Shown here in pieces: positions 2,173 to 60,622 of a stretch of 64,000 bases of DNA. Below the pieces are notes generated by a model. The model saw only the letters and a list, made by a program, of their open reading frames with translations, was not told the DNA's origin and searched no databases. The stretch's first letter is position 1, and each line of letters begins with the position of its first letter. The DNA is taken from the NCBI GenBank assembly GCA_963700275.1, contig CAVOWZ010000011.1:452144-516143 (forward strand), written 5' to 3'. Made by a program: the position numbers and the translations under genes. Source of the DNA: an uncultured Bacteroidales bacterium (lineage in GTDB: Bacteria > Bacteroidota > Bacteroidia > Bacteroidales > VadinHA17).

Positions 2173-2410
2173 AAGATAAAAATTATGGAAACAGCATTTT
2201 AATTAATTCAGGAACTTATATGTCCTTATAAGCATATCCGTAATATATTGATAATTAATATTATATCGAAAAGATACTTATTTAGTATAGAGCTGTAGAT
2301 ATAAAGGTACAAAAAATAAATAATACGTTGTGCAGTTAAAATTTAAATAAGGATCATCAAATCAGAATATAAATATCAGCTGCCAGAAAATGCAAATTAT
2401 AACTTTTTCT

Positions 2411-2530
2411 TCATGACAAGATTATATGAATGATCAATCCATGATAATATTCATTATCATGGATCGAACCATCTGAATGTATCGTATTCCAGTGTTTTTT
2501 ATTCATATGGTTTTTAATTATACTGTCAAG
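2411..2530 (-). repeat. Decayed copy D of the mmcQ/yjbR 3' end plus cassette junction
   Basis: The minus strand reads CTTGACAGTATAATTAAAAACC-ATATGAATAAAAAACACTGGAAT... and translates as HMNKKHWNTIHSDGSIHDNEYYHGLIIHIILS*. It is near-identical to yjbR at 4961-4980 over ATGAATAAAAAACAYTGGAA. Confidence 0.8.
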
Positions 2531-2553
2531 AAATTGAAAATGGATATATAAAA

Positions 2554-3189
2554 CTATTTCTTATATATTTTTGGCGTAAACCCATCTGGAACGTTTATCG
2601 TCTCTGGTAGATGATTCATATTAGGCATTGAAAAATTTGGAGCAGGTTCTTTCATAAAACCTACAATAGACAATTCAATCTTTGATGGACTTTCATAATT
2701 ACCGCCATTAATTTTAATAAGACATTGAATTGAAGATACTGCGTCAATTACTGGTAATTGGGATGTAAAATATTTGGGTTGCCAAATCCCAGGGTTGAGA
2801 GGTAGAAATAAGAAGTCTTTTGAAAGATCCAGATTTCCATCTTTTACTTTAATTTCAAGTATTACCAAAAAAACAGGATAAGGATTATTATTTCTTATAA
2901 TAATAGGTAATTCTCGGTCTGCTTTAGCAGGGATAATGATTTCTGATGGGGTGACAAAAATTCCTTTATATTTCGCTTCGTTACTCTTATCAATACTTTC
3001 TTTAATGCCAATATATGCACCTAAAATCATTAAAACAATTGAAAATAAATTCATTGAATTATTAATCCATTTAAGAGTCTTTTTGAATTTAATTCTTTCC
3101 TCTATTTTCTTTTTAAGGATTAAATTATAAATACCTAACAAAGCACCTCCACTGAAAAAAAATATACCTGCCAATAAAAGGATATTCAT
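2554..3189 (-). CDS. Hypothetical membrane-anchored protein (cassette 3 ORF)
   Basis: 211-aa ORF with two N-terminal hydrophobic helices followed by a soluble domain. It is AT-rich and I recognise no family. Confidence 0.5.
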   Translation of the reverse strand: MNILLLAGIFFFSGGALLGIYNLILKKKIEERIKFKKTLKWINNSMNLFSIVLMILGAYIGIKESIDKSNEAKYKGIFVTPSEIIIPAKADRELPIIIRNNNPYPVFLVILEIKVKDGNLDLSKDFLFLPLNPGIWQPKYFTSQLPVIDAVSSIQCLIKINGGNYESPSKIELSIVGFMKEPAPNFSMPNMNHLPETINVPDGFTPKIYKK

Positions 3190-3287
3190 AACAATATTAT
3201 ATTTATTCGAATTTCAAAAGAGTCTATTAATAATCAAATTTAATATGTAAATAGACAGGAATCAGTGTTATAAGGTCTTAGTCGGCT

Positions 3288-3412
3288 TATTTCCAATAAT
3301 CAGAGGAATGATCTATCTACTCAAATATCTCTTTATCAGGAATAGATCCATCTAAAAATATTGAATTCCAGAGTTTCTTGAATAGTATGATTTTTAATTA
3401 TAATACTATGTC
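3288..3412 (-). repeat. Decayed copy C of the mmcQ/yjbR 3' end plus cassette junction
   Basis: The minus strand reads GACATAGTATTATAATTAAAAATC-ATACTATTCAAGAAACTCTGGAAT... and translates as KKLWNSIFLDGSIPDKEIFE*IDHSSDYWK. It is the same unit as copies B and D. Confidence 0.7.
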
Positions 3413-3448
3413 ATTGGATTTGAATAATTTAGATTGTGTAAATATATT

Positions 3449-3757
3449 TTATTCCTTTGCAAATCCAAATACGAAAACTGGATTTGTAATATCATCACTC
3501 AATATAGCTATGTATTGTTTCCATCCTACAGCAGTTGAAATTGGATTAGCTTTATACAGTTTACCAATTTCATAGTTTTTAATATCAACGCTTATCGCAA
3601 AATAGCTTAAAGAATTTTGAGTTTCAACAAAATAAAGATTTTTTATACCAATTGTTACTAAACAATTATTTCCTTGAAAATTGATAGTGCCTTCAACATT
3701 ACCTTTAATATATTTACTATTAAAATTACCAGGATTATAAATAGTATTGTCTCTCAC
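3449..3757 (-). CDS. Hypothetical protein (cassette 2, distal ORF), in frame with the upstream ORF across a TAG
   Basis: 102-aa ORF with a GTG start. It is in the same reading frame as 3806-4111, separated by a single TAG (3806-3808) and 16 sense codons. Confidence 0.35.
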   Translation of the reverse strand: MRDNTIYNPGNFNSKYIKGNVEGTINFQGNNCLVTIGIKNLYFVETQNSLSYFAISVDIKNYEIGKLYKANPISTAVGWKQYIAILSDDITNPVFVFGFAKE

Positions 3758-3805
3758 TCCAAAAGTTGTATATCCTCCAGGGAATGATTTTTCTAATAAG
3801 TTTTT

Positions 3806-4111
3806 CTATAATAGTTGATAAATTTCAAGATACTTTTTATAATCATTATTTAGTAAGAAATCCTGTCTCAATTGAGAAACATTTTGTTCAATTCGAACAA
3901 CTCCCTTGTTAATTGGCTCAATGTCTTTTTTACTGACCCCTAGTTTAAAAAAAAAGTATCCGATTAAAATACCGATAATACCTGAGATAAGATGTGGATA
4001 TAAAAAATTCATAATTTTTTTTAATTTACCTTCTCGTGCCTTACTAGGAATTTTTGTATCTTTTTTTATTTGTTTAGGCCTAAGATATTTAGAAACAGGT
4101 TTTTTATTCAT
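3806..4111 (-). CDS. Hypothetical small membrane protein (cassette 2, proximal ORF)
   Basis: 101-aa ORF with a basic N-terminus followed by one TM helix (LISGIIGILIGYFFFKLGV). Confidence 0.4.
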   Translation of the reverse strand: MNKKPVSKYLRPKQIKKDTKIPSKAREGKLKKIMNFLYPHLISGIIGILIGYFFFKLGVSKKDIEPINKGVVRIEQNVSQLRQDFLLNNDYKKYLEIYQLL

Positions 4112-4221
4112 ATAGAAGACAAAAAAATATTAACCAATGTATTATGTAGTTTGCTTGATTTACAAAGAATCCATTAAAAATACAAATATATTATATAAAT
4201 GGAAGGAAATTAGTACAATAA

Positions 4222-4360
4222 TTACTTAAATAAATTTTCCCTAATAACCAAATTATAGGAGTTATCAATCCACACAAGTATCTCATCAACAGGGATATAT
4301 TTATCAAGTATAATAGTGATCCAATGTTATTTAATCATAATGTTTTTGATTATACTATCC
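4222..4360 (-). repeat. Decayed copy B of the mmcQ/yjbR 3' end plus cassette junction
   Basis: The minus strand reads GGATAGTATAATCAAAAAC-ATTATGATTAAATAACATTGGATC... and translates as HWITIILDKYIPVDEILVWIDNSYNLVIRENLFK*. Confidence 0.75.
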
Positions 4361-4370
4361 TAAAATAAAT

Positions 4371-4835
4371 TCAATTTTTCTTTTTCTTTCCTTTCTTATC
4401 ATTGTCATTCAAAATCACTAATTTCCAGTTTACAATACCAATAAGGATTTGTTGTCGGAAAACAATTTTCCTTCCCGCTTGTCGACCAGCAGTCCATTTC
4501 ATATTTGAATGAATAGTCTTAAATAATTTTTCCTTAAGCGTACGGTCAACGGGTTGGAATGTTCTGTAATTAAAATCTTCCCCTTCACAATTGATAATAA
4601 AGTTTATCCTAATAATATCGCCGAAATTTATATGTTCAAATTTAATATCTATCGAATTATTAAGTATTTCTTCAAGCTGGCTAAATGAAATATTTGGAAT
4701 AGGTGGTTCTTCACAAACTACAAAGACACCAGCTGTGGTATCGCAAAAAGGTTGCCCATACAAATCCTCCCTTGTTAATAAGATAATGATTGTATTGATC
4801 GTTAACAATGAAATGAGTATTCTTTTATGACACAT
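4371..4835 (-). CDS. Hypothetical secreted protein (cassette 1 ORF)
   Basis: 154-aa ORF with an N-terminal signal-like hydrophobic segment and a Lys-rich C-terminus. It has a weak resemblance to TonB-C-like folds (EEPPIPN...), which I cannot confirm. Confidence 0.5.
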   Translation of the reverse strand: MCHKRILISLLTINTIIILLTREDLYGQPFCDTTAGVFVVCEEPPIPNISFSQLEEILNNSIDIKFEHINFGDIIRINFIINCEGEDFNYRTFQPVDRTLKEKLFKTIHSNMKWTAGRQAGRKIVFRQQILIGIVNWKLVILNDNDKKGKKKKN

Positions 4836-4869
4836 TGCTGTCAGTACTTTAAGTTTAATTTATTTAAAT

Positions 4870-5191
4870 TTATTTTTTCATTCTAACTAAATCATATGAG
4901 TGGTCAATCCATTTAAGTATTTCATTATCAGATATTGTACCGTCAAGTACTAAAAGTGTTCCAATGTTTTTTATTCATGTGATATCCCGGGATGACTGCA
5001 GAATATCTTTCCCTCAGTTCAAGTGCAAGAGAAGGGTCACATTTCAGATTGATGCTCAGATCGCCGTCGAGATTTGCCAAAACGAATATTTTTCCTTTTG
5101 CTTTGAAAACCAGAGTATCATCGCCAAAGGGAAGGCTTTCGGTAACATCATCCTTTGAAATACAATATTGTCTCAGGATCTCTATATTCAT
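4870..5191 (-). pseudogene. yjbR: MmcQ/YjbR-family DNA-binding protein with a 1-nt frameshift near codon 78
   Basis: ORF 4943-5191 (MNIEILRQYCISKDDVTESLPFGDDTLVFKAKGKIFVLANL...GYHMNKKHWNTFST*) has YjbR-type sequence. The family C-terminus (LLVLDGTISDNEILKWIDHSYDLVRMKK*) continues in the +1 frame to 4870. The total span is 322 nt, which is 3n+1. Confidence 0.7.
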
Positions 5192-5213
5192 ACACTTAAA
5201 ATTTTAAAGATTC

Positions 5214-5358
5214 ATATTCTGTGTATACCCTTTGTGAAATCCTTAGTGCTCTTTGTGCCTGCCTGCCGTCAGGCAGGGTTAAACAAAAATGCTTACTTAA
5301 CCACAAAGGGCACAAAGGTTTACACAAAGGACACAAAGGAATGCAATATACAGAATAT
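5214..5358. repeat. About 145-bp palindromic intergenic element built from CACAAAGG-type octamers around a central GC hairpin
   Basis: The left arm cctttgtgaaatccttagtgctctttgtgcc is the inverse of the right arm ccacaaagggcacaaaggtttacacaaaggacacaaagg. The centre is cctgccgtcaggcagg. The outer flanks atattctgtgtata and tatacagaatat are also inverted. Confidence 0.75.
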
Positions 5359-5465
5359 TCTCCAACGGAATCCCGGCTTTTCAGAATCAGAGATGCATAT
5401 TTCCCGGAGCGGGAACAATAAAGAAGAAAATATTACATTTACAGAAACCAAAAACCTCAGATGAT

Positions 5466-5873
5466 ATGAAAACCAGAATCCTTGTTACATCATTAGTACT
5501 TTTAATAATGGTTGCATGTAAACCTAAAACTCCTGAGCAGACTGAACAACCAACAGCTGCTGTCCAGACAGCTGAATATCAGAAAATGATAACGGCCAGG
5601 GTGTTTATCAAGGCGGGCAAAGAGGCTGATTTTATTTCAGCAGCAAAAATGATGATTGAAAATTCAAATAAGGAAGAAGGTTGTCTGGGATATATGCTGT
5701 ACCAGGACCCTTATGAAAAAACCAATTTCATATTTGTTGAGAAATATGTAAACCAGGCTGCAATTGATTTTCATTTCGGCACATCATATTTTAAGGAATT
5801 CGGGACGCTGATTTCCGATATGACAAGCAATCCGATGGAGATCAAAATTTATGATATAGCAGCGGAAAAGTAA
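5466..5873 (+). CDS. Lipoprotein with antibiotic-biosynthesis-monooxygenase (ABM) domain
   Basis: 135-aa ORF with a lipobox LIMVAC. The ABM-like core is ARVFIKAGKEADF...GCLGYMLYQDPYEKTNFIFVEKYVNQAAIDFH. Confidence 0.7.
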   Translation: MKTRILVTSLVLLIMVACKPKTPEQTEQPTAAVQTAEYQKMITARVFIKAGKEADFISAAKMMIENSNKEEGCLGYMLYQDPYEKTNFIFVEKYVNQAAIDFHFGTSYFKEFGTLISDMTSNPMEIKIYDIAAEK

Positions 5874-5956
5874 TAATACTTTATTTCCTATTTCTGCAAG
5901 ATCTCCGCTGAGGGGTAATGAGCATAGCCGTATAGTCCACTTCTGATGAATCCGTT

Positions 5957-6112
5957 TCAACCACCCCGGCCGGGAAAGCAGAATTGTAAACATTATAAAA
6001 TCAGCAATCCCGGCCACCTCCCGCCTAAAGCGGGAGGAAACTTATTTGTTTATAAACCAGATAATTACAGTAGTTTTCATTATCAAAATATTCATTAAGT
6101 TGACGGCTATGA
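5957..6112 (+). repeat. MITE-like intergenic repeat, copy 1
   Basis: The sequence tcaaccaccccggccgggaaagcagaattgtaaaca...atcagcaatcccggccac-[hairpin]-aaacttattt...ccagataattac...gttgacggctatg aligns over its full length with 11140-11295. Confidence 0.8.
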
Positions 6113-10895: not shown

Positions 10896-10949
10896 TCTGG
10901 CCGTCACACAAAGTACTTCACAAAGGATACACTAAGGATTGGGGATATA

Positions 10950-11038: not shown

Positions 11039-11139
11039 TCCAATTCTGAGAAATGAGTCCACTTCTGCTGAATCTGTTTAATGGTTTTAATTAAAGTCAA
11101 AGAATCCTGAAGGAAGAAAATTCAGAAGACAGCAAAGTA

Positions 11140-11295
11140 TCAACCACCCCGGCCGGGAAAGCAGAATTGTAAACATATCCAGATCAGCAATCCCGGCCAC
11201 CCCTCCTTTAAAAGGAGGGGAAACTTATTTACCTATAATCCAGATAATTACTGCATTTTTCGTTATTAAAATATTTCTTAGGTTGACGGCTATGC
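11140..11295 (+). repeat. MITE-like intergenic repeat, copy 2
   Basis: It aligns over its full length with 5957-6112. The internal hairpin is cccctcctttaaaaggagggg here and cctcccgcctaaagcgggagg in copy 1. Confidence 0.8.
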
Positions 11296-18133: not shown

Positions 18134-19825
18134 ATGAATTTTCAAGATATACTTCAGGTTGTATTCCTGTTTGGTATTTTGATCATACTGACACCTTTGA
18201 CGGGTAATTATATGGTCAGCGTATTTTCGGGCAGCAATCAGTTAATGCTGTCAGGACCGGGTTGGCTTGAAAAGCATGTTTATAAGTTCTTAAGAATAAA
18301 TCCTGATGAAGAAACAGACTGGAAAACCTATACATATAGTCTTTTGTATTTAAATCTGACAGGTTTTGTTTTCCTGTTCATGATACAGATTTTTCAGGCA
18401 TATCTACCCTTCAATCCTGCAGAGCTTCCAAATATATCATGGCATTCATCATTCAATACATCAATAAGTTTTGTTACAAATACCAACTGGCAGGGTTATG
18501 CCGGAGAGACAACCCTAAGTTACTTTGTGCAAATGGCCGGGCTTACTGTTCAGAATTTCCTGAGTGCAGCAACAGGAATGGCAGTCTTACTGGCAGTAAT
18601 AAGGGGATTCTCCCGGAAGACAAGCGGTAAAATTGGTAATTTCTGGGTAGACATCACACGCATCATATTATACATTTTATTACCACTATCAATTCTCACG
18701 GCTATTTTTCTGGTCAGCCAGGGTGTCATTCAGAATTTTAAGTGTTATGAGACAATCCGCACCATACAGGGTTCAGAGCAGGTAATTCCTATGGGCCCGG
18801 CAGCATCACAGATTGCAATAAAACAACTTGGCTCAAACGGAGGTGGGTTTTTCAATGCAAACAGTGCACATCCTTTCGAAAATCCTACCCCACTAAGCAA
18901 TTTCATTCAACTGCTGACAATTTTATTGATTCCGGCTGCATTAACCTTTGCCTATGGGAAAATGGTCGGTTCGATAAAGCATGGCTGGACAATATTTATA
19001 GTTATGTTTATTCTTCTTTTTACCGGATTATTGTTTTCCCTTTACGCTGAGTATTCAGCCAATCCGGTATTCGGGCACATACCGTTAATGGAAGGCAAAG
19101 AGACCCGGATTGGAATTACGAACAGTATACTTTGGTCAGTATCAACCACAGCAGTATCAAATGGTTCTGTTAATGCAATGCATGACAGTCTTTCACCGGT
19201 TGCAGGGATGATTGCTATGATAAACATATTGACAGGTGAAGTTATTTTTGGCGGTGTGGGTTCAGGATTATACGGGATGGTGATATTCATTGTCCTAACT
19301 GTATTTATTGCCGGATTGATGGTAGGCAGGACACCTGAATATCTTGGGAAAAAAATAGAATCATTTGAAATTCAGATGGCGATTCTGGCTGTACTGATCC
19401 CTAATCTGGCAGTACTTCTGTTCTCGGCATTGGCCGCGATCAGCTTTTCAGGTGTATCAGGGATAAATAATCCCGGACCACATGGTCTGTCGGAAATATT
19501 ATATGCTTATGGTTCAGCAGCCGGGAACAATGGCAGTGCTTTTGCCGGACTTGACACAAATACTGTATTTTATAATGTTACTCTTGGTGCCGGAATGCTG
19601 TTGGGCCGTTATGGAGTAATTATACCCGTATTAGCAATGGCCGGAAAAATATCTGAAAAAAAATATACACCCTATTCCGCAGGTACATTCCGTACAGATA
19701 ACTGGCTTTTCGTAGTATTGTTAATTACAATTATCCTGGTTGTTGGCGGATTAACACATTTTCCCGCATTAGCACTTGGCCCTGTTATGGAACAACTGTT
19801 ATTGATAAAGGGTGTTACATTTTAA
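18134..19825 (+). CDS. kdpA: K+-transporting ATPase subunit KdpA
   Basis: 563-aa polytopic ORF with KdpA selectivity-filter-like segments ([24 protein letters not shown]). It is the first gene of the kdp operon. Confidence 0.95.
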
Positions 19826-19835
19826 TCCGGTGTAT

Positions 19836-21914
19836 ATGGCAACAAGACAAAGTTTAAGTTTTTTGAACAGAAAGCTGATAATGCAGGCTTTAAAATGCAG
19901 TTTTATAAAGTTGAATCCCTCGTTGCTTATAAAAAATCCTGTAATATTCATAGTGGCAACAGGTTCAGCTGTTAATTCAATAATTGTAATAGCAGGTATT
20001 ATAAAGGATAATTTTTCCTCTTTTGATCTTCAGATCACACTCTGGTTATGGTTTACAGTATTATTTGCAAATTTCTCGGAAGCAATTGCCGAGGGTAGAG
20101 GTAAAGCTCAGGCTGAGAGCCTGCGTAAAAGCCGTCAACAGGTAAGAGCCAGGAAAATTGAGGGGGAAAGAGAAACAGAAGTATCTGCAACAGAACTCAG
20201 GAAGGGGGATATTGTAGTATGTGAAGCCGGGAGTCTGATCCCCGCGGATGGTGAAGTTATCGAAGGTATTGCCAGCGTTGATGAATCAGCTATAACAGGT
20301 GAATCAGCCCCTGTGATCCGTGAAAGCGGTGGTGATCGTTCAGCCGTAACGGGGGGTACCAGAGTGATAAGTGACAGGATAGTCATCCGTATAGTATCTG
20401 AACCGGGAAGGACATTTATTGACCGGATCATCACCATGGTAGAGGGAGCAAAACGACAGAAAACACCAAATGAAAAAGCCTTATCAAACCTTTTAATTGG
20501 TTTGTCAGCTATTTTCCTTCTGACAGTCATTGCTCTTCCGGCCTTTTATGAATACAGTCTGAACGCATCCGGCAGACAGATATCTCAAAACCTTTCATTT
20601 CCGGTTTTGATTGCCTTATTGGTCTGTTTAATACCAACAACAATTGGCGGTTTGTTGAGCGCTATCGGGATAAGCGGCATGGACAGGCTTATACAAAGAA
20701 ACGTTATTGCTTTAAGTGGTCATGCTGTTGAGGCAGCCGGAGATGTTGATGTTCTTTTACTGGACAAAACAGGAACTATCACTTTCGGGAACCGGATGGC
20801 TGTTAATTTTATCCCGGCAGAAGGTATTACTGTCAGCGAGCTTGCTGATGCAGCTCAGATTTCTTCACTTTCTGACGAAACACCTGAAGGACGCTCTGTT
20901 GTTATTCTTGCAAAAGAGAAATATAAAATACGCAGCCGGGACGTACAACAACTGAATGCTACATTCATTCCGTTTACGGCAAAGTCGAGGATGAGCGGAG
21001 TAGATATTAATAGTGCTGATGGTAATATTCAAAGAATCAGGAAAGGGTCATCTGAAGCCATCCGGACATTTGTTCAGAATAATAATGGATATTATTCCCG
21101 GAATATAAAAGATATTGTTACCGGGTTATCGCAACAGGGCGCTACACCTCTGTTAGTAGCCAGGGATAACAGTATATTAGGGATAATTGAGCTCAAAGAT
21201 GTTATCAAAGGCGGAATAAAGCAACGGTTTACAGAACTTCGCAAAATGGGGATCAGAACTGTTATGATCACCGGTGATAATCATTTAACTGCTGCAGCAA
21301 TTGCAGCGGAGGCGGGAGTGGACGATTTTATGGCTGAGGCAACACCTGAAGATAAGCTGCAACGTATACGTCATGAACAGGCAAATGGTCATCTGGTAGG
21401 TATGATAGGAGATGGTACAAATGATGCACCGGCACTTGCACAGGCAGATATAGGTATTGCAATGAATACAGGGACGCAGGCAGCCCGCGAAGCAGGAAAT
21501 ATGATTGACCTCGACAGCAATCCGACAAAACTTATCGAGGTGGTGGAAGTGGGGAAACAACTACTCATTACCAGGGGTTCACTTACGACATTCAGCATAG
21601 CTAATGATGTTGCAAAATATTTTGCTGTAATACCAGCCATATCTGTTTCGCTTTACCCTGATCCTTCAGGCATCGGACCTCTTGCTGCATTGAATATCAT
21701 GAATCTCGGGTCACCACAGAGCGCTATCCTCAGCGCTGTAATATTCAACGCGCTGATAATAATTTTTTTGATACCTCTTGCCCTGAAGGGTGTCAGGTAC
21801 AGGCCGGTCTCAGCCGGCGTGGCTTTAATGCGTAACCTTCTTTTCTACGGACTGGGAGGTATCCTGGCTCCTTTTGCCGGAATTAAGATCATTGATTTTC
21901 TGATAAATCTTTAA
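19836..21914 (+). CDS. kdpB: K+-transporting P-type ATPase subunit KdpB
   Basis: P-type ATPase motifs DKTGTIT, MITGDN and [10 protein letters not shown] are present. The ORF track start at 19812 overlaps kdpA. I prefer the ATG at 19836 (MATRQS...), but the start remains uncertain. Confidence 0.93.
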
Positions 21915-21926
21915 ATCTGCTGCCAC

Positions 21927-22499
21927 ATGAAGACCCTGATGATTTCAATCAAAGCATTTATCCTTTTTACCATTTTAACAGGATTTTTTTATCCAATTCT
22001 TATTACGGGAGTGGGCCAGATATTGTTTCCGGTGAAATCCAACGGGAGTATTGTAACTAAAAATGGTAAGAAAACTGGTAGTGCGCTTATAGGGCAGAAA
22101 TTTGACAGTCTGGCGTACTTCTTCACACGGCCTTCACATGTATCATATAACCCGATGCCATCAGGGGGATCTAATTTTGGGCCGACTAATCAGAAGCTAA
22201 GGGATATAGTTTTTGAACGCAGAAATATGTTCATATCTGTCAATTGTTTGGATACTCTTACCAAAGTACCATCAGAGATGATTTTCGCATCAGCTTCAGG
22301 CCTTGATCCGCATATCTCGCCGCAGGCTGCCATTTTGCAGGCAGACAGAATAGTAAAATACAGGATGTTTTCGCCGGCTCAGCAGCAAAAATTATTGAAT
22401 CTGATTAATTTTCTTACTGAAAAGCCTCAGTTTAATTTTCTGGGAGAAGAGCGGATTAATGTATTTCTCTTAAATTTAAGTCTCGATAGTATAAAATGA
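21927..22499 (+). CDS. kdpC: K+-transporting ATPase subunit KdpC
   Basis: 190-aa ORF with a single N-terminal TM helix, the motif ASGLDPHISP and the expected operon position. Confidence 0.9.
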   Translation: MKTLMISIKAFILFTILTGFFYPILITGVGQILFPVKSNGSIVTKNGKKTGSALIGQKFDSLAYFFTRPSHVSYNPMPSGGSNFGPTNQKLRDIVFERRNMFISVNCLDTLTKVPSEMIFASASGLDPHISPQAAILQADRIVKYRMFSPAQQQKLLNLINFLTEKPQFNFLGEERINVFLLNLSLDSIK

Positions 22500-25174
22500 A
22501 TGATTCAATTGAAAACCGGCCTGATCCTGACGATATTCTTGCTTCAATTAAGAAAGATGAAGAATCCGGTAAGCGGGGTAAACTGAAGATATTTTTTGGT
22601 ATGTGCGCAGGAGTCGGGAAAACATATTCAATGCTTCAATTTGCTCTGTCCGGTAAAGCAAAAAATCTTGATGTTGTGGCCGGGTATATTGAATCACATA
22701 ACAGAATAGAGATACTCGGACTGGTTGAACGATTAGAGTTGATTCCCCGGAAGGAAACGGAGTACAGGGGAATTGTCCTTCAGGAAATGGATCTGGACAG
22801 GATCCTGGAACGGAAGCCCGGGATTGTTCTGGTTGATGAGCTTGCACACACAAATATTCCCGGCTCCAGGCACCTTAAACGTTATCAGGATGTACAGGAA
22901 ATTCTGGATAACGGAATAAATGTATATACTACTTTAAATGTACAACATCTTGAAAGCCGGAGTGATATTGTGTCCCAGATTACGGGAGTACCTGTAAGGG
23001 AAACACTTCCTGATGAAGTTTTTGAAAATGCCGATGAAATAGAACTTGCAGATATAACACCTGATGAGCTTCTTGCAAGATTGGCAGAAGGGAAGATCTA
23101 TTCTCCTGAACTTTCAGCAGAAGCAGTTGATCATTTTTTCAGAAAGGGGAATATTACAGCTCTTCGGGAGATGTCTCTCAGGATTGTTGCAGACAGGGTT
23201 GATAAACAGCTGAAAGTTTATATGCAGAAGAATCGTATCCCCGGTCCATGGAAATCGGGCATGCATCTTCTTGCCCTTATCAGTCCGAGCCCTCATGCAG
23301 CGAAGCTTATCCGATGGTCAAAAAACCTGTCTTACAGTATGGGGGCAAGTCTTACTGCGTTATATGTAGAAGCCACACGGCCACTGGATGCAAGCCAGAA
23401 GGAGCAACTTTCCGGTAATCTGAACCTGGCGAGGCAGCTTGGCGCAGAAATTATTACAACATCAGGGAATGATCTTGTTGAAACAATTCTGAATGTGGCA
23501 CGCAGGGAGAACATTACTCATATAATAATCGGTAAGCCCGGGGATAGTAATATTTTTTCACTTTTTGCTCCACGTAATCTTTTAAAGAGACTTATCAGAT
23601 ATAGCGGGAATATCGATATTTATGTTTTGGGATCTGAGGTTGAAAGTGATACCCCCCGCACCAGACAACCTTTCTCATTTCCGGTTTTTACAACAGGTTT
23701 ACATCAGTATATACTGGCCACGGCAATAATATTAATTACTTCTTTAATTTGCTTCAGCTTTGCAGAATATCCCGGATATCAATCGATTTCATTTATTCTT
23801 CTCTTTGTTGTTTCCATTCTGGCAACATTTATGGGAATAGGGCCTATCCTGTTAGCTTCTGCCCTGAGCGCATTTATCTGGAACTTTTTTTTCATTCCTC
23901 CCAGATTTACAATACATATTGAAAAGACTGAAGATATACTGATGTTTTGTATGTTTTTTATTATTGCTCTGGTGAACGGAGTCCTGACATCAAGAGTAAG
24001 GCGGCAGGAGAAAATTACCCGTGATCGTGAAGAACGCACAAATGCTCTTTACCAGTTGACTAAAGAATTATCAGAAGCAGAAAATACAGATGAATTAATT
24101 AAGATCGCTACAATAAAAATCAGGAAACATTTCGGGCTCGATATCATATTTATATTGCAGGACGGATTGAATCATTTATCAGAGTATACCCTGAATAATG
24201 ATTTGAAAAAATTATCGGCAGCTGAAATGAGTGTTGCCGAATGGGTATTCAGTCATTCACGCAAAGCCGGTAAATATACCGACACCCTTCCTTCCGGCAG
24301 ATTGACATTTTTCCCGCTTACGGGTACCAGTATAAAACCAGGTGTTATTGTTGTAAGCATGGATGCCCCGGTTCATGGTGAGAAGGAGCAGTTTTGGGAT
24401 ACCTTTCTGACCCAGATTTCAAACAGTATTGAACGCAGGTTCCTGGATGACCTTGCCAGGAGGGCCAGATTCCTGGATGAATCAGATAAGCTGTATAAAA
24501 CTCTTTTTAATTCAATTTCTCATGAATTGAGAATCCCTGTTGCAACTATAATGGGGGCATCCGACTCATTGCTTTCATCAGAGCATACAAACGAAATACG
24601 TTATGAATTATCAGGTGAAATATACAAAGCATCCAAAAGACTGAACAGGCTGATTGAAAATCTCCTGAACATGTCAAGGCTCGAGAGCGGGCGGATAACA
24701 CCAAGGTTTGATTGGTATGATATTCATGATCTGATAAATACAGTATGTGACATCCTCAGTGAAGAGCTCAAACCTTTCAACCTTCACATAGTTATACCTG
24801 ATGAAATGCCACTTGTAAAAATCGACTTCGGTTTAATGGAGGAGGTACTTTATAACATTATTCATAATGCATCACAGTATGCCCCGCCGGCAACCAATAT
24901 AAGGGTCAAAGCATTTTATGACAACGGAATGCTGAACCTTCAGGTAATGGACAGAGGGCCTGGATTCCCGGAGAAAGAAATATCTCTTATATTTAATAAG
25001 TTTTACCGTGTTGAAGGATCCAAACCCGGGGGTACAGGTCTTGGCCTCTCTATTGCAAAAGGTTTTGTGGAAGCCCACAAAGGCACAATAACTGTTGAAA
25101 ACCGAAAAAACGGGGGAGCTAAGTTCTCGATTTTTATACCAACAGAGATTTTTAAGGACGATATAAATGAATAA
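22496..25174 (+). CDS. kdpD: Sensor histidine kinase KdpD
   Basis: 892-aa ORF with an N-terminal KdpD domain carrying a Walker-like GMCAGVGKT motif and a USP-like domain. These are followed by four TM helices, a GAF-like region, an H-box (SHELRIP) and an HATPase domain (GTGLGLSI). It overlaps kdpC by 4 nt. Confidence 0.93.
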   Translation: MNDSIENRPDPDDILASIKKDEESGKRGKLKIFFGMCAGVGKTYSMLQFALSGKAKNLDVVAGYIESHNRIEILGLVERLELIPRKETEYRGIVLQEMDLDRILERKPGIVLVDELAHTNIPGSRHLKRYQDVQEILDNGINVYTTLNVQHLESRSDIVSQITGVPVRETLPDEVFENADEIELADITPDELLARLAEGKIYSPELSAEAVDHFFRKGNITALREMSLRIVADRVDKQLKVYMQKNRIPGPWKSGMHLLALISPSPHAAKLIRWSKNLSYSMGASLTALYVEATRPLDASQKEQLSGNLNLARQLGAEIITTSGNDLVETILNVARRENITHIIIGKPGDSNIFSLFAPRNLLKRLIRYSGNIDIYVLGSEVESDTPRTRQPFSFPVFTTGLHQYILATAIILITSLICFSFAEYPGYQSISFILLFVVSILATFMGIGPILLASALSAFIWNFFFIPPRFTIHIEKTEDILMFCMFFIIALVNGVLTSRVRRQEKITRDREERTNALYQLTKELSEAENTDELIKIATIKIRKHFGLDIIFILQDGLNHLSEYTLNNDLKKLSAAEMSVAEWVFSHSRKAGKYTDTLPSGRLTFFPLTGTSIKPGVIVVSMDAPVHGEKEQFWDTFLTQISNSIERRFLDDLARRARFLDESDKLYKTLFNSISHELRIPVATIMGASDSLLSSEHTNEIRYELSGEIYKASKRLNRLIENLLNMSRLESGRITPRFDWYDIHDLINTVCDILSEELKPFNLHIVIPDEMPLVKIDFGLMEEVLYNIIHNASQYAPPATNIRVKAFYDNGMLNLQVMDRGPGFPEKEISLIFNKFYRVEGSKPGGTGLGLSIAKGFVEAHKGTITVENRKNGGAKFSIFIPTEIFKDDINE

Positions 25175-56504: not shown

Positions 56505-57665
56505 TTAATAACGAAATATTGCTGCCAGCCCTGTTTCTGAAGGCATCTTACCGGTTGGAAGAACCATCACCTTTCCACCCATCTTCATTACCAATTCTCC
56601 CATATCGTCGAGCAGGTCATCTACTTTCGGATTTATCAAATCCTTTTTCTGTGTATTACCCGTCACCAGATTTGTAATCCTGACAGGAATTATCCGGTCG
56701 GCTTCAACAATGAGCGTATCAACCCGTCCCTCAACTGCGGCCACAGCAACTTCCTTGTAATCATCACTCCCTTTGCCATTTGCCCTTGCCTGCTCAAACG
56801 TGGCAACCAGTTTGTCAAGTTTCAGGTTATATTCGGGTTCCATTATTTCCCAGGCCATAATTGCCAGTTTATCTGGTGAAACTGATGAAGGGTTAATTGC
56901 AATACCATCGGGTAGCAATAATGGATTTTTATTTACCTTACGAAAAAGGCTGTGATGTTCGGTCAAAGCAGCAAGAATGAGTGGCCAGCCTGAAGGTTTC
57001 GTATATTGTTCATAAATCATATTCGCAACGACACGAAAAAACCGTTCAGTGTCTTTTTCAGTTTCTTCTTTTCTTCCTCCATGACCATGGTGCATGGGCG
57101 AACTTTCTCCTCCTGAACCACCATAAGAGGCAACAGTTGTATGCTTGTCTGTCAATTCATCACCAAGCGCTTCATTTATGGTTTTTGGAGTATCAGCAGT
57201 GAGTTCAACTTCAGTAAGTGAGTGACGGTTGCCTTCAAAAAGCCGGATATCACGAAGTGTTAAGCCCAAAACGTGGAAATGGTCAGGAGATTGTAAATAT
57301 TGCCGCAGCGGTTTGGTATGGAAGCTGTCGGCCACTATTGCCAATTCCTCAAACGATCTATGTACACCGACAACTTTAAACAAACCGGTTGCACTAAAAA
57401 CGGCCAGACCGTCAAATGTGTGATTCCAGGTATTATTATCGTCAGCAAGAGTTTCGAAAGGTTCAAGATGTTTTTGTACCTCGCCGGGTGAATATTTTTG
57501 CAACAGTGATTCTTTCATTTGCCGGACAAGATTTTTAAAAAGGATGACATCCTGAAGATTTTCAGGATGTTTTTGATGTGTAGGCATATATAGGGAAAGA
57601 CAAGGCGCCTGATCTGCTGTCAGAAGCTCCTGAACCAATTCTTCTGTAAGTAATTCCATTATCAT
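56505..57665 (-). CDS. eRF1/Pelota-like (bacterial archaeo-eukaryotic release-factor, baeRF-type) protein
   Basis: The 386-aa ORF has an N-terminus (APCLSLYMPTHQKHPENLQDVILFKNLV) that resembles what I recall of baeRF-family proteins. This is recognition from memory only. Confidence 0.45.
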   Translation of the reverse strand: MIMELLTEELVQELLTADQAPCLSLYMPTHQKHPENLQDVILFKNLVRQMKESLLQKYSPGEVQKHLEPFETLADDNNTWNHTFDGLAVFSATGLFKVVGVHRSFEELAIVADSFHTKPLRQYLQSPDHFHVLGLTLRDIRLFEGNRHSLTEVELTADTPKTINEALGDELTDKHTTVASYGGSGGESSPMHHGHGGRKEETEKDTERFFRVVANMIYEQYTKPSGWPLILAALTEHHSLFRKVNKNPLLLPDGIAINPSSVSPDKLAIMAWEIMEPEYNLKLDKLVATFEQARANGKGSDDYKEVAVAAVEGRVDTLIVEADRIIPVRITNLVTGNTQKKDLINPKVDDLLDDMGELVMKMGGKVMVLPTGKMPSETGLAAIFRY

Positions 57666-58670: not shown

Positions 58671-58838
58671 CTACTTTTCATCAGGAGTATCCTCAGGAGT
58701 TTCAAGGTGTGTATCAATCTCCCGGATAATATCATCAATATCGATGTTCTCCTGAGCATTATCATCCGATAAACCCTTATCTTTTTCCGGGTCATTTTTT
58801 GGCTCCAAATCCTTTTTCTGCCTGAAACGCCGTTTCAT
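58671..58838 (-). CDS. 55-aa disordered basic/acidic protein with a Pup-like acidic helix, translationally coupled to the AAA+ ATPase
   Basis: Hand translation gives MKRRFRQKKDLEPKNDPEKDKGLSDDNAQENIDIDDIIREIDTHLETPEDTPDEK*. Its ATG overlaps the ATPase TGA (ATGA at 58838-58835). It is below the 60-aa cut-off of the ORF track. Confidence 0.55.
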   Translation of the reverse strand: MKRRFRQKKDLEPKNDPEKDKGLSDDNAQENIDIDDIIREIDTHLETPEDTPDEK

Positions 58839-60622
58839 GTCAATCCCGATTTCAAGGTAACAGACTTATCCATACCAACAACCTCTATACCCTCATTCTC
58901 GATAAACTCGCTCAAAGGCTCCTCATGATCTAAACCAATATTTTGCCTGAACACGACATCAATGGCATCAATCAAATCCTGTTCCTGAATGCCACCAGGA
59001 TTCTTATCAGGATGATCAGCGTCACGGCGGATAGCAATGGTTGTCGCCTTTTCCACAACGCCGGCAATCAAAGCGCCATTGATTATATGCTTAAGCATAA
59101 AATGCCTTGGTGTCTTAGTATCCTTGCGATCAAAAACAGCATAATACTTGTACTCATCAGAGAACAACCGTTTCGCAGCAGAAGCAGCAAGGTCTTCCTT
59201 CTTCAAACCATTAGCAAGCGGCACTCCTTTCAGATGAATATTGAATATTTCCCCGGCACTTTCTAACGTCGGCCGGCTAACATACACCTTAACATCAACT
59301 CTGCCATCACGAACTACTGCAGGATCAAGAATATCTGCCCTGTTAGTCGCCAGTAAAACAAGGGCGCCCGATTCCTCCATACCTCCCATCTCCGACAGAA
59401 ACGTTGGCACAGTTGTACTCTCAATATCAGAACTGATACCAGAACCGCGCTTCCGAAGCAACGCTTCTGCCTCATCAATGAAAACAATTGCAGGAAAGCC
59501 ATACTTTTTTTTGTGCGTTTTAGCTCTCGAAAACAGACTTCTGATAGCCTCCTCTGACTTACCAAGCCACATTTCCAAAAGTTCCGGCCCCTTGACATAG
59601 ATAAATCCTGACTGCATGGCTTCCTTAGCATGTATACCATACATCTTAGCTAACGACGTGACGACAGCCATTGCAAGGAGAGTCTTCCCGCATCCGGGAG
59701 GACCGAAAAGCAATGCGCCTTTTACCGGCTTCTTACGATAGAACTCATAGTACTTCTTTAACTGGTGAGGCCATTCGATGATTTCACGCATGATACGCTT
59801 TGCCTCTGACAAACCACCAACGTCGTCCCAGGATACCTCTCTCCAGTCGGTTAAAGTGTAACTTGTCTCAATATTCCCAATATTCCTGATGATAATAGTA
59901 TTAAATAGATCAAGCACAACGCGGTCCCCTTTCTTCACATCAGCAGAACGACCCTTATAAGCGACCGATTTGCCACTGCCGATTGCCACTTCACAACTTT
60001 CATCATCTACGATTTCAGTTATGATACCTATATTCCCGGCTATGATACCTTCAGTCTTGTCTACAATTTGCTTCGTAGAAGGAGATAGTCTGACCATGTC
60101 GCCCGGTAACAATTTCCCGTGAAGGTGCTTAGGGAAGATGACTTCCACGAGTCGTCCTTCAAAGTGCAGGACCGCTGTGCCGTAACGATCACGATCCATT
60201 GCATCACGATCTTTCAGGAGCAGATCATCAGTATTGTAATCACCTTTCTTACCATCAGCAAACTCAACCGTTACCCACCCATGCTTCTGTTTGGTTTTGA
60301 TCTCACCTTCTGCAATGGATTCATTCGATCGTTCGCTCTCAGGCTTAATACGTACGATAAGTCCTATTTTATATTCATTATGACCTGCATTGTCCTTGAA
60401 ATAATTGCCGTGATCAGCCCACACACCAGGATCATTCATATACGTCTTAATAACAGTAGCCAAAGGGAGCGGTTCCCTGGTGAGGGCTTCGAGCATGTCG
60501 CGTTGTTCAAACAGTTTCTCTTTGGCTTTCGCAAGAGTAATCGTCATCTCATCGACTTTGGTATGGAGACGAATGATTTGTTGTTTAAGCTCATCAGATT
60601 TATTATTTCCTTCCATAACCAT
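58835..60622 (-). CDS. PAN/ARC/Mpa-type proteasomal AAA+ ATPase (coiled coil + OB domains + AAA module)
   Basis: 595-aa ORF with an N-terminal coiled coil (DELKQQIIRLHTKVDEMTITLAKAKEKLFEQRDMLEALTREPLP) and two OB-like segments. The AAA module has Walker A GPPGCGKT, pore loop MWLG, Walker B VFIDEAE and GSGISSDIESTTVPTFLSEMGG...ATNRADILDPAVVRDGRVD. This block is very close to the actinobacterial Mpa/ARC sequence as I recall it. The C-terminus (…LKSGLT) lacks an HbYX or GQYL docking motif. Confidence 0.8.
   Translation of the reverse strand: MVMEGNNKSDELKQQIIRLHTKVDEMTITLAKAKEKLFEQRDMLEALTREPLPLATVIKTYMNDPGVWADHGNYFKDNAGHNEYKIGLIVRIKPESERSNESIAEGEIKTKQKHGWVTVEFADGKKGDYNTDDLLLKDRDAMDRDRYGTAVLHFEGRLVEVIFPKHLHGKLLPGDMVRLSPSTKQIVDKTEGIIAGNIGIITEIVDDESCEVAIGSGKSVAYKGRSADVKKGDRVVLDLFNTIIIRNIGNIETSYTLTDWREVSWDDVGGLSEAKRIMREIIEWPHQLKKYYEFYRKKPVKGALLFGPPGCGKTLLAMAVVTSLAKMYGIHAKEAMQSGFIYVKGPELLEMWLGKSEEAIRSLFSRAKTHKKKYGFPAIVFIDEAEALLRKRGSGISSDIESTTVPTFLSEMGGMEESGALVLLATNRADILDPAVVRDGRVDVKVYVSRPTLESAGEIFNIHLKGVPLANGLKKEDLAASAAKRLFSDEYKYYAVFDRKDTKTPRHFMLKHIINGALIAGVVEKATTIAIRRDADHPDKNPGGIQEQDLIDAIDVVFRQNIGLDHEEPLSEFIENEGIEVVGMDKSVTLKSGLT

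Follow-up and report, generated by a model that had tools for sequence, protein, structure and literature searches.

Organization of the yjbR locus

In a 64-kb stretch of the genome of an uncultured Bacteroidales bacterium (assembly GCA_963700275.1, contig CAVOWZ010000011.1), we analyzed the gene yjbR (also named mmcQ) and an array of small AT-rich blocks that follows it on the same strand. This stretch is referred to as the window, and all coordinates are window positions unless a comparison locus is named, the prefix L denoting loci or contigs fetched from genomes, metagenome contigs and Logan contigs. The last ~110 nucleotides (nt) of yjbR are present in four copies, all on the minus strand, with core ATGs at 4978 (c1, the copy within the resident gene), 4338 (c2), 3386 (c3) and 2506 (c4). 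A junction that we call the J-box, AGTATAATTAAAAAC/CAT (elsewhere written AGTATAATTAAAAAC...CAT), stands directly before c2, c3 and c4 and not before c1, which is preceded instead by the yjbR coding sequence. Using a profile of the junction plus tail, nhmmer recovered c4 (E = 2e-35), c3 (3.5e-30), c2 (1.2e-29) and, by its tail only, c1 (4e-18), with no fifth match in the window. A 36-nt pattern combining junction and core gave two matches in the window compared to 0 expected from 100 shuffles.

The 5' part of yjbR, codons 1-71 (4979..5191, minus strand), matches the Pfam YjbR family and has a host-like GC content of 0.41, which is also the value of the whole window. The open reading frame (ORF) called at 4943..5191 (82 amino acids, aa; Pfam YjbR, E = 1.5e-22) stops early at one extra T in a T-run near 4953 (4950-4956, minus strand, AACACTTTTAGTAC), and this extra T has no counterpart in c2, c4 or any relative. 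With the frameshift removed, the frame runs to HMNKKHWNTLVLDGTISDNEILKWIDHSYDLVRMKK*, ending at 4870, and the corrected protein shares 70-80% identity with YjbR of Bacteroidales metagenome-assembled genomes. The gene could be a true pseudogene, or the extra T an error of sequencing in the homopolymer; the independently assembled Logan contig L087 does not extend to this position. The GC content drops at the first core copy (CACATGAATAAAAAACATTGGAACAC, 4956..4981, minus strand), which encodes HMNKKHWNT inside yjbR and is the putative attachment site: the resident tail has 0.26, the three blocks behind it 0.25-0.29. Since the step from 0.41 to 0.26 falls at the shared core, the resident tail belongs by its composition to the foreign DNA.

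As L087 matches positions 2490-4816 at 99.9% identity, the array is not a misassembly. This contig is also the only strain-level comparison of the exact window locus, as look-ups of the identical ABM and cytochrome c peroxidase proteins encoded beside the array returned no record.

Three cassettes with unrelated cargo

Each of the three blocks, hereafter cassettes, extends from one core to the next on the minus strand. Cassette 1 (4339..4978; 640 nt, GC 0.29) comprises tail c1 (4870-4978), an ORF at 4371..4835 and a J-box at ~4339-4378. Cassette 2 (3387..4338; 952 nt, GC 0.25) comprises the decayed tail c2 (~4228-4338), a split gene of ~220 codons and a J-box at ~3387-3425, and cassette 3 (2507..3386; 880 nt, GC 0.28) the decayed tail c3 (~3288-3386), an ORF at 2554..3189 and a J-box at ~2507-2545. 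The array had first been described, in a first-pass annotation made from the letters alone, as blocks of ~0.6-0.9 kb holding unrelated AT-rich ORFs and each ending in a junction and a tail copy. The measurements bear out this organization, with an upper size slightly larger than given. The cassette ORFs are mutually unrelated (BLASTP E = 0.15 and 61).

The lack of relationship between the cargo genes bears on the simplest explanation of the array, namely that the yjbR 3' region was duplicated locally in tandem and its copies then decayed, or that the assembly is at fault. A tail repeated four times in direct orientation is what such a duplication would leave. However, the intervening ORFs are unrelated to one another, homologues of the cassettes occupy the same site in other genomes (see below) and the independent L087 assembly reproduces the array at 99.9% identity. 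These results already refute this explanation, to which we give almost no credence.

The two ORFs called in cassette 2 (3806..4111 and 3449..3757) share one frame (4111-3757 = 354 = 118x3) and are separated by a lone in-frame stop at 3806-3808. The gene calls of L087 show the same split (706-1011 and 1060-1368). With one frame and a single stop, they were formerly one gene of ~220 codons, and the array therefore carries three cassette genes instead of the four counted initially. Neither ORF has a match in Pfam or PADLOC. The cassette-1 ORF encodes a 154-aa protein with a signal peptide and a TonB_C-like domain, and its family shows conserved residues across eight homologues. A profile of this family collected 274 clusters in 1.8 billion proteins, including multi-domain proteins matched within their TonB_C domains, hhalign being among the comparisons that linked the family to TonB_C. 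Judging from these sequence comparisons, it is probably a small secreted TonB_C-like protein; its AlphaFold2 model (mean predicted local distance difference test, pLDDT, of 41) was too poor for use. The cassette-3 protein (211 aa) has hydrophobic N-terminal segments, as seen by eye, and only three homologues among 5.8 billion proteins. A sequence search of the PDB was empty, PADLOC matched none of the cargo proteins, and no cargo of the window could be identified by Pfam or PADLOC as an immunity or defence gene. Promoter and terminator scans performed no better than on shuffled sequences.

The terminal orphan tail c4 (HMNKKHWNTIHSDGSIHDNE / ILSWIDHSYNLVMKKK, with one frameshift; 2397..2506, minus strand, GC 0.27) finds its closest match in the orphan tail of L084 (78%). 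Being AT-rich, it is probably not the original host tail, and it may be the tail of an older unit whose cargo is lost. Between c4 and the cytochrome c peroxidase gene lies an AT-rich non-coding stretch of 224 nt (2173..2396, minus strand, GC 0.24) that holds no ORF of at least 40 aa and may be a remnant of an older cassette. The tails had been read as progressively decayed copies, with the newest element closest to the gene. The decay does not progress in this way: among the orphan copies, c4 is preserved best and c2 and c3 are the most decayed, and the proposed age order is not supported.

The tail travels with the cargo in the cassette-1 family

We compared the cassettes with the fetched loci. 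Cassette 1, taken as tail, ORF, J-box and next core (4983-4312), is found as one block in L088 (3194-3874, 82.6% identity) and also in L089. Cassette 3 (3370-2489, from 16 nt inside the tail) corresponds to L086 3372-4270, up to the contig end, at 76.8% identity, and there it immediately follows an intact yjbR, within the YraN-yjbR locus described below as canonical. The homology between blocks is limited by the core on the left and by a point ~26 nt past the next core on the right. The tails upstream of the cassette-1-family ORFs in four contexts (window c1, L089, L098 and L101) are mutual best matches at 76-90% identity, and the window and L088-L097 have the same J-box behind the cassette-1 ORF. 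Since the tails of this family cluster across contexts, the tail travels with the cassette behind it. The compact limits of the family (0.64-1.1 kb) are also kept in different genomes.

The displaced copy has another origin. The orphan tail of L081 and the resident tails of its closest relatives, L010 and L008, share 90-91% identity, compared to only 74-75% between the latter and the resident tail of L081 itself. The displaced copy of L081 is therefore the old tail of its host.

The same site is empty, occupied or variable in other genomes

When we searched yjbR in one genome per GTDB species, 80 loci were obtained and a second tail was present in L009 only. In metagenomes, a pattern of J-box plus core retrieved five JGI contigs, all of which carry a J-box followed by an orphan yjbR tail, with an intact yjbR 1.1-3.2 kb upstream in three of the five. 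Together with L009, further cases are L086, L088-L097, L098-L100, L101-L102, L104, L105-L107 and L108, those of L086 and L088-L108 having been found through homologues of the window cassette proteins and through short annotated 'proteins' that are fragments of YjbR. Overall, the site is occupied in about a dozen other environmental Bacteroidales genomes.

In most cases the locus has a canonical order: a HisKA_3 kinase gene, a response regulator gene, YraN, yjbR, a variable segment, a peptidase C1 and/or LuxE-like gene, and PGK. Empty sites, in which yjbR is directly followed by the peptidase C1 gene, were observed in L001, L003, L005, L011 and L013. In every other occupied locus with yjbR on the contig, the gene is intact (106-110 aa), which fits a replacement tail that preserves the gene.

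The variable segment holds very different cargo: members of the cassette-1 family (L098-L102) or of the cassette-3 family (L086), BlaI with BlaR1 (M56/TonB_C; L081-L083 and L104), an MNT and HepT toxin-antitoxin pair (L105-L107), an IS200-like Y1 transposase with REP-like (repetitive extragenic palindromic) repeats on both sides (L009 and L084; hereafter the RAYT cassettes), or a 155-aa protein without known identity (L085). Core-to-core sizes range from 0.63 to 3.5 kb across loci. The cargo is co-oriented with yjbR in the three window cassettes and in L086, L098, L101, L104 and L105, and lies on the opposite strand in L084, L009 and L085, so that the common orientation announced for the cassettes applies to the window and not to the whole family. 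Related hosts whose upstream DNA is 80-82% identical carry different cassettes, of cassette-3 type in L086 and of cassette-1 type in L098 and L101. Within one peat/wood population, the unit of tail, ORF and J-box is present as two identical tandem copies in L089 and L090 and as a single copy in L091-L097. L108 has two successive orphan tails, and also a cassette-sized interval without a called gene. The comparison of cassette content suggested by the first-pass annotation showed empty sites, different cargo and this difference in copy number.

No recombinase was found in any of ~15 cassettes from ~12 loci. This result is relevant to the possibility that the blocks are deletion remnants of larger, integrase-bearing islands that target the yjbR 3' end and have accreted in tandem as cis-mobilizable elements. 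Accretion at a gene 3' end, followed by decay to integrase-less elements that keep attL and attR, is documented (PMC5704250), and both the interval of L108 and the 2173-2396 stretch of the window resemble what such a decay would leave, the latter as a cargo-less remnant. Against this origin, none of the ~15 cassettes retains an integrase or a piece of one, and homologous cassettes share compact boundaries across genomes, which argues that they spread as small units and did not decay separately. We consider a derivation from larger islands quite improbable.

The window yjbR itself lies outside the canonical neighbourhood. Its upstream gene encodes an ABM monooxygenase, compared to YraN canonically, and YraN is absent from the window. 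YraN was also considered as the recombinase of the cassettes and rejected, since its synteny with yjbR extends to empty sites and the window lacks it. L002 (8001-8757) is the only fetched locus with the ABM and GFO-like neighbours of the window. There, yjbR and the ABM gene converge with 26 nt between them. In the window (4870-5873) the two genes point away from each other, and yjbR lies at the opposite side of ABM. The yjbR closest to that of the window is in L001 (80%), in a YraN-yjbR-peptidase locus that is absent from the window. The window yjbR and its array may have been relocated.

Two groups of loci show the array or its genes in another setting. In L088-L097 (e.g. L089 1-3300; L088 90-400), the array starts without an intact yjbR, at a degenerate junction (AGTATAAACTATAATCAT|ATTAAT) that follows a block with a 476-aa protein without family match and a divergent ParB_N protein; a cluster of six GGTCA/TGACC repeats lies within 300 nt upstream. 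The block itself may be a larger cassette, or an element of plasmid type, with a J-box at its end. In L109 (1938-6060) and L110, a gene of the cassette-1 family (69% identity) follows a BNR/Sortilin-like gene; no yjbR tail precedes it, and behind it only the initial ~25 nt of its junction (ATTTATTTTAGGATAGTATGGTTA) are present. In L109, genes for a tyrosine integrase and an HTH_17 protein are located 2.3 kb upstream of it. These two loci could represent the context of the gene before it entered a cassette, or a lead to the recombinase.

Conserved elements of the junction

The J-box is ~37 nt long, with the consensus TGTATTTCAATTATTTAnAnAGTATRGTYAAAAnCAT, in which AGTAT, AAA and CAT are invariant or nearly so across unrelated cargo. 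It is kept in ~12 lineages while the neighbouring orphan tails decay. That it could be a general intergenic motif was rejected by test. The core that follows reads CAY ATG AAY AAR AAR CAY TGG AAY AC, encoding HMNKKHWNT. As DNA (CAYATGAAYAARAARCAYTGGAAYAC), it is nearly invariant in yjbR of Bacteroidota (30 of the fetched yjbR loci), which makes it a good landing site. All the units begin at profile position 56-57, that is at CAY|ATG, in the four window copies as well as in 11 other loci or populations. Resident tails vary by host over their first ~27-35 nt and follow the cassette over the remainder (e.g. in L098). This switch from host to cassette places the likely crossover ~20-27 nt after the core ATG.

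We looked for structure in this region. RNAalifold predicted 0 pairs on 12 units of J-box plus core, i.e. no conserved hairpin, and Rfam gave only sub-threshold chance matches on the same segment. The J-box reads AGTATRRTYAAA and does not consistently fit GTTRRRY. A dif-like site has 28 bp, with two ~11-bp dyad arms around a 6-bp centre. By eye, the alignment of J-box and core contains no dyad besides CATATG, the comparison being made with a dif consensus that may not be that of Bacteroidales. On this same basis, a Xer/dif mechanism was set aside. Single-strand transposition of the IS200 type was also rejected: a Y1 transposase is present as cargo in L084 and L009, but the units have no end hairpins and the 110-nt tail duplication does not fit this mechanism.

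A model for the array and its rivals

We propose that the array consists of three non-autonomous cassettes (0.64-0.95 kb) that entered one site in yjbR by site-specific integration, through a recombinase acting in trans; we put the probability of this reading at about 0.6. Each unit is composed of a core, a replacement yjbR tail of ~110 nt, a short leader, one or more cargo genes and a J-box of ~37 nt. If the unit were circular, its J-box would lie next to the core and create an attP-like site. Recombination with the core of yjbR, probably ~20-27 nt after the core ATG, would then join the gene to the cassette's own tail and leave yjbR whole, and the previous tail would be shifted downstream with the J-box now before it. 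Repeated integration would build the array. Three features give the units the anatomy of site-specific integration: the boundary is fixed at one base, unit and target share a segment of identity, and only the side of the element has a conserved arm. The circular intermediate and the site-specific rather than homologous nature of the exchange are what we infer, as are the identity and class of the enzyme. Since the cassettes have no recombinase, we presume that this enzyme is supplied in trans, by a helper element or by another part of the genome. The initial idea of repeated insertion, at one site of the gene, of elements that bring a replacement yjbR 3' end is borne out in its main part by the block homology, the cargo-linked tails, the old host tail of L081, the empty sites, the alternative cargo and the copy-number polymorphism.

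Several observations weigh against this model. As already stated for integrases by the first-pass annotation, no recombinase is present in the window, according to Pfam scans of 42 of the 47 ORFs of at least 150 aa (those left out being the kdp-operon ORFs 19812-21914 and 22496-25174 and three that overlap scanned genes). None was called within ±10 kb of the site in L098, L104 and L105 either. Neither an excised circle nor an attP-bearing helper was found: IMG/VR gave no match to two junction patterns and to the 476-aa protein of L089, and collections of phages and plasmids gave none to the junction plus tail unit and to the same protein. The hosts that carry the same cassette type are at least 15% diverged, and the copy-number polymorphism between L089 and L091 is the only sign of recent activity. 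In the BlaI/BlaR and RAYT cassettes, neither of the two flanking tails follows the relationships of the cargo. Inside L084, and likewise inside L009, both tails are nearly identical over their first 58-84 nt, and they differ between the two genomes, so that gene conversion or homologous exchange is needed in addition. Finally, L010 (8001-12250) carries BlaI and BlaR1-like genes between yjbR and a porin-like gene without a J-box or an orphan tail; in its close relative L081, a related BlaI/BlaR pair occupies the same place as a J-box-bounded cassette.

Part of these observations would be expected if the cassettes spread between related genomes by homologous recombination, with the yjbR 5' part plus core and the tail copy serving as homology arms. 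No dedicated recombinase or circle would then be required, and the J-box would be a passenger or have another role. The absence of a recombinase in the window and around L098, L104 and L105 agrees with such an exchange, as do the near-identical tail pairs of L084 and of L009, which are what gene conversion gives, and the mosaic relationships between the tails of the BlaI/BlaR loci. The doubled unit of L089 and L090 could likewise result from unequal crossing-over between tails. However, homologous exchange does not account for a ~37-nt J-box conserved beside unrelated cargo in ~12 lineages next to orphan tails that decay, nor for a homology between yjbR and the units that always begins at the same base (profile position 56-57). 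Tails that are 70-85% identical over ~110 nt between cassettes are a poor substrate, and the arrival of unrelated genes between tail and J-box is left unexplained. We regard homologous exchange as the main rival of the model but an unlikely origin of the array; it probably contributes to the homogenisation of the tails in any case.

Taking site-specific integration as the preferred reading, we also considered a broader one, in which the site is a dedicated gene-capture platform of environmental Bacteroidales. Single-gene cassettes with a J-box and a portable tail would be inserted and excised at the 26-bp yjbR site by a recombinase encoded elsewhere, and YjbR, as a DNA-binding protein, might be an accessory factor. 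Such a platform would parallel integrons in function, but with a linear sequence site and with restoration of the gene 3' end. We advance this extension tentatively, with somewhat less than even confidence.

Comparison with known mobile systems

Islands in tandem at tmRNA and tRNA genes are marked by successive 3' fragments of the gene, and integrase-less 'hitcher' islands use the integrase of another island. Tandem accretion at gene 3' ends and integrase-less cis-mobilizable elements (CIMEs) have been described (PMC5704250). As in these elements, each yjbR unit is bounded by direct repeats of the target 3' end starting from one fixed position, arrays form at one site that is empty in relatives, and the recombinase-less units would rely on an enzyme in trans. 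The element also supplies a replacement 3' end and displaces the old tail, a point that is unclear for the BlaI/BlaR and RAYT cassettes. In contrast, the yjbR units measure just 0.6-3.5 kb, usually with a single gene, and are thus much smaller. Neither a relative with an integrase nor a helper was found, a common ~37-nt J-box stands at the distal end whatever the cargo, and nothing indicates an origin by decay from larger elements. The yjbR cassettes thus follow the logic of accretion elements (PMC5704250) at the size of integron cassettes.

With integrons, the array has in common small, recombinase-less cassettes, mostly with a single gene and co-oriented in part of the loci, which are gathered at one chromosomal site, carry mainly orphan genes and toxin-antitoxin modules, and vary in content between relatives. 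Unlike in integrons, no IntI gene is adjacent, no conserved hairpin (0 pairs) or GTTRRRY core is present, and the platform is the coding 3' end of yjbR, which is restored by each cassette. The term integron-like, applied to the array at the outset, holds as an analogy; the defining features, IntI and attC, are lacking.

A resemblance to the rAID-1 arrays of gut Bacteroidales had also been noted. These are immunity-gene arrays defined by a XerD-family recombinase at the head of the array (10.1101/471110). The likeness extends to the order Bacteroidales, to arrays of small genes with low GC content (here 0.25-0.29 vs. 0.41) and to repetitive intergenic sequence. It does not extend to the recombinase, as no XerD-family gene heads the yjbR array. 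The repeat is here a yjbR fragment plus J-box, and no window cargo was recognised by Pfam or PADLOC as an immunity gene (TonB_C-like, BlaI/BlaR1, HepT-MNT and IS200-like proteins being those seen across the loci).

Integrative mobile elements exploiting Xer (IMEX) and the pdif modules of Acinetobacter plasmids are small recombinase-less modules, often of one or two genes and possibly in tandem, that use the Xer recombinase of the host. The yjbR cassettes are similar in size, in gene number, in their tandem arrangement and in their presumed dependence on a recombinase supplied by the cell. They differ in that the target is a protein-coding sequence and not dif, with no dyad evident by eye in the J-box and core. 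Compared to the orphan modules behind rhs and cdiA genes, which are displaced by homologous recombination, the yjbR tails encode the same conserved ~35 residues and not variable toxin tips, and the cargo is unrelated, including regulators and a transposase, and does not consist of cognate immunity genes.

A 2020 survey described variable regions rich in mobile elements beside MmcQ/YjbR-EVE genes in Streptococcus and Actinobacillus, for which a transposon-type mechanism was suggested and the question of mechanism left open (PMC7641849). In both cases a gene of the family borders a hotspot of mobile or defence-type genes, including toxin-antitoxin modules. The surveyed hotspots, however, lie beside fusion genes, in other taxa and with another architecture, and show no tail duplication, fixed intragenic site or J-box (PMC7641849). 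This survey is the only precedent we found that ties the MmcQ/YjbR family to a hotspot. Our literature search, of incomplete coverage, returned no account of an attachment site inside yjbR for Bacteroidota, nor of this cassette family, which we provisionally consider as undescribed.

Other features of the window

Repeats of another kind lie close to the array. Between yjbR and the ABM gene, at 5216-5340, we observed a hairpin-forming repeat (CACAAAGG / CTTTGTG-rich) with 29-nt arms that are 86% complementary. A related inverted copy is located at 10907-10939, and a similar motif follows the array of L089 (~4655-4700). This repeat looks like an element of REP type or of miniature inverted-repeat transposable element (MITE) type. 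In addition, two intergenic regions (5954-6111 and 11137-11294) share a 158-nt direct repeat at 83% identity, which holds CCCCGGCCGG-type palindromes and resembles the REP-like repeats around the IS200-like gene of L009. Further away, the superoxide dismutase gene is flanked by genes for a baeRF family 3 protein (archaeo-eukaryotic release-factor-like, 56505-57665, E = 5e-44) and for an AAA ATPase (58835-60622).

Significance of the yjbR cassettes

If the mechanism is plain homologous exchange or the decay of larger islands, the locus would be an ordinary integration hotspot. If the cassettes are active, they would offer a second route, besides integrons, to stockpile and swap single genes at a fixed address, in a phylum where classical integrons are rare. 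Since a J-box beside a fragment of a conserved gene can be searched, metagenomes could be mined with it for many orphan genes, toxin-antitoxin modules and regulators, and co-occurrence with the J-box could reveal the missing recombinase. Overall, the cassettes would provide a concrete and testable mechanism for the MmcQ/YjbR genes that border variable regions in other phyla (PMC7641849).

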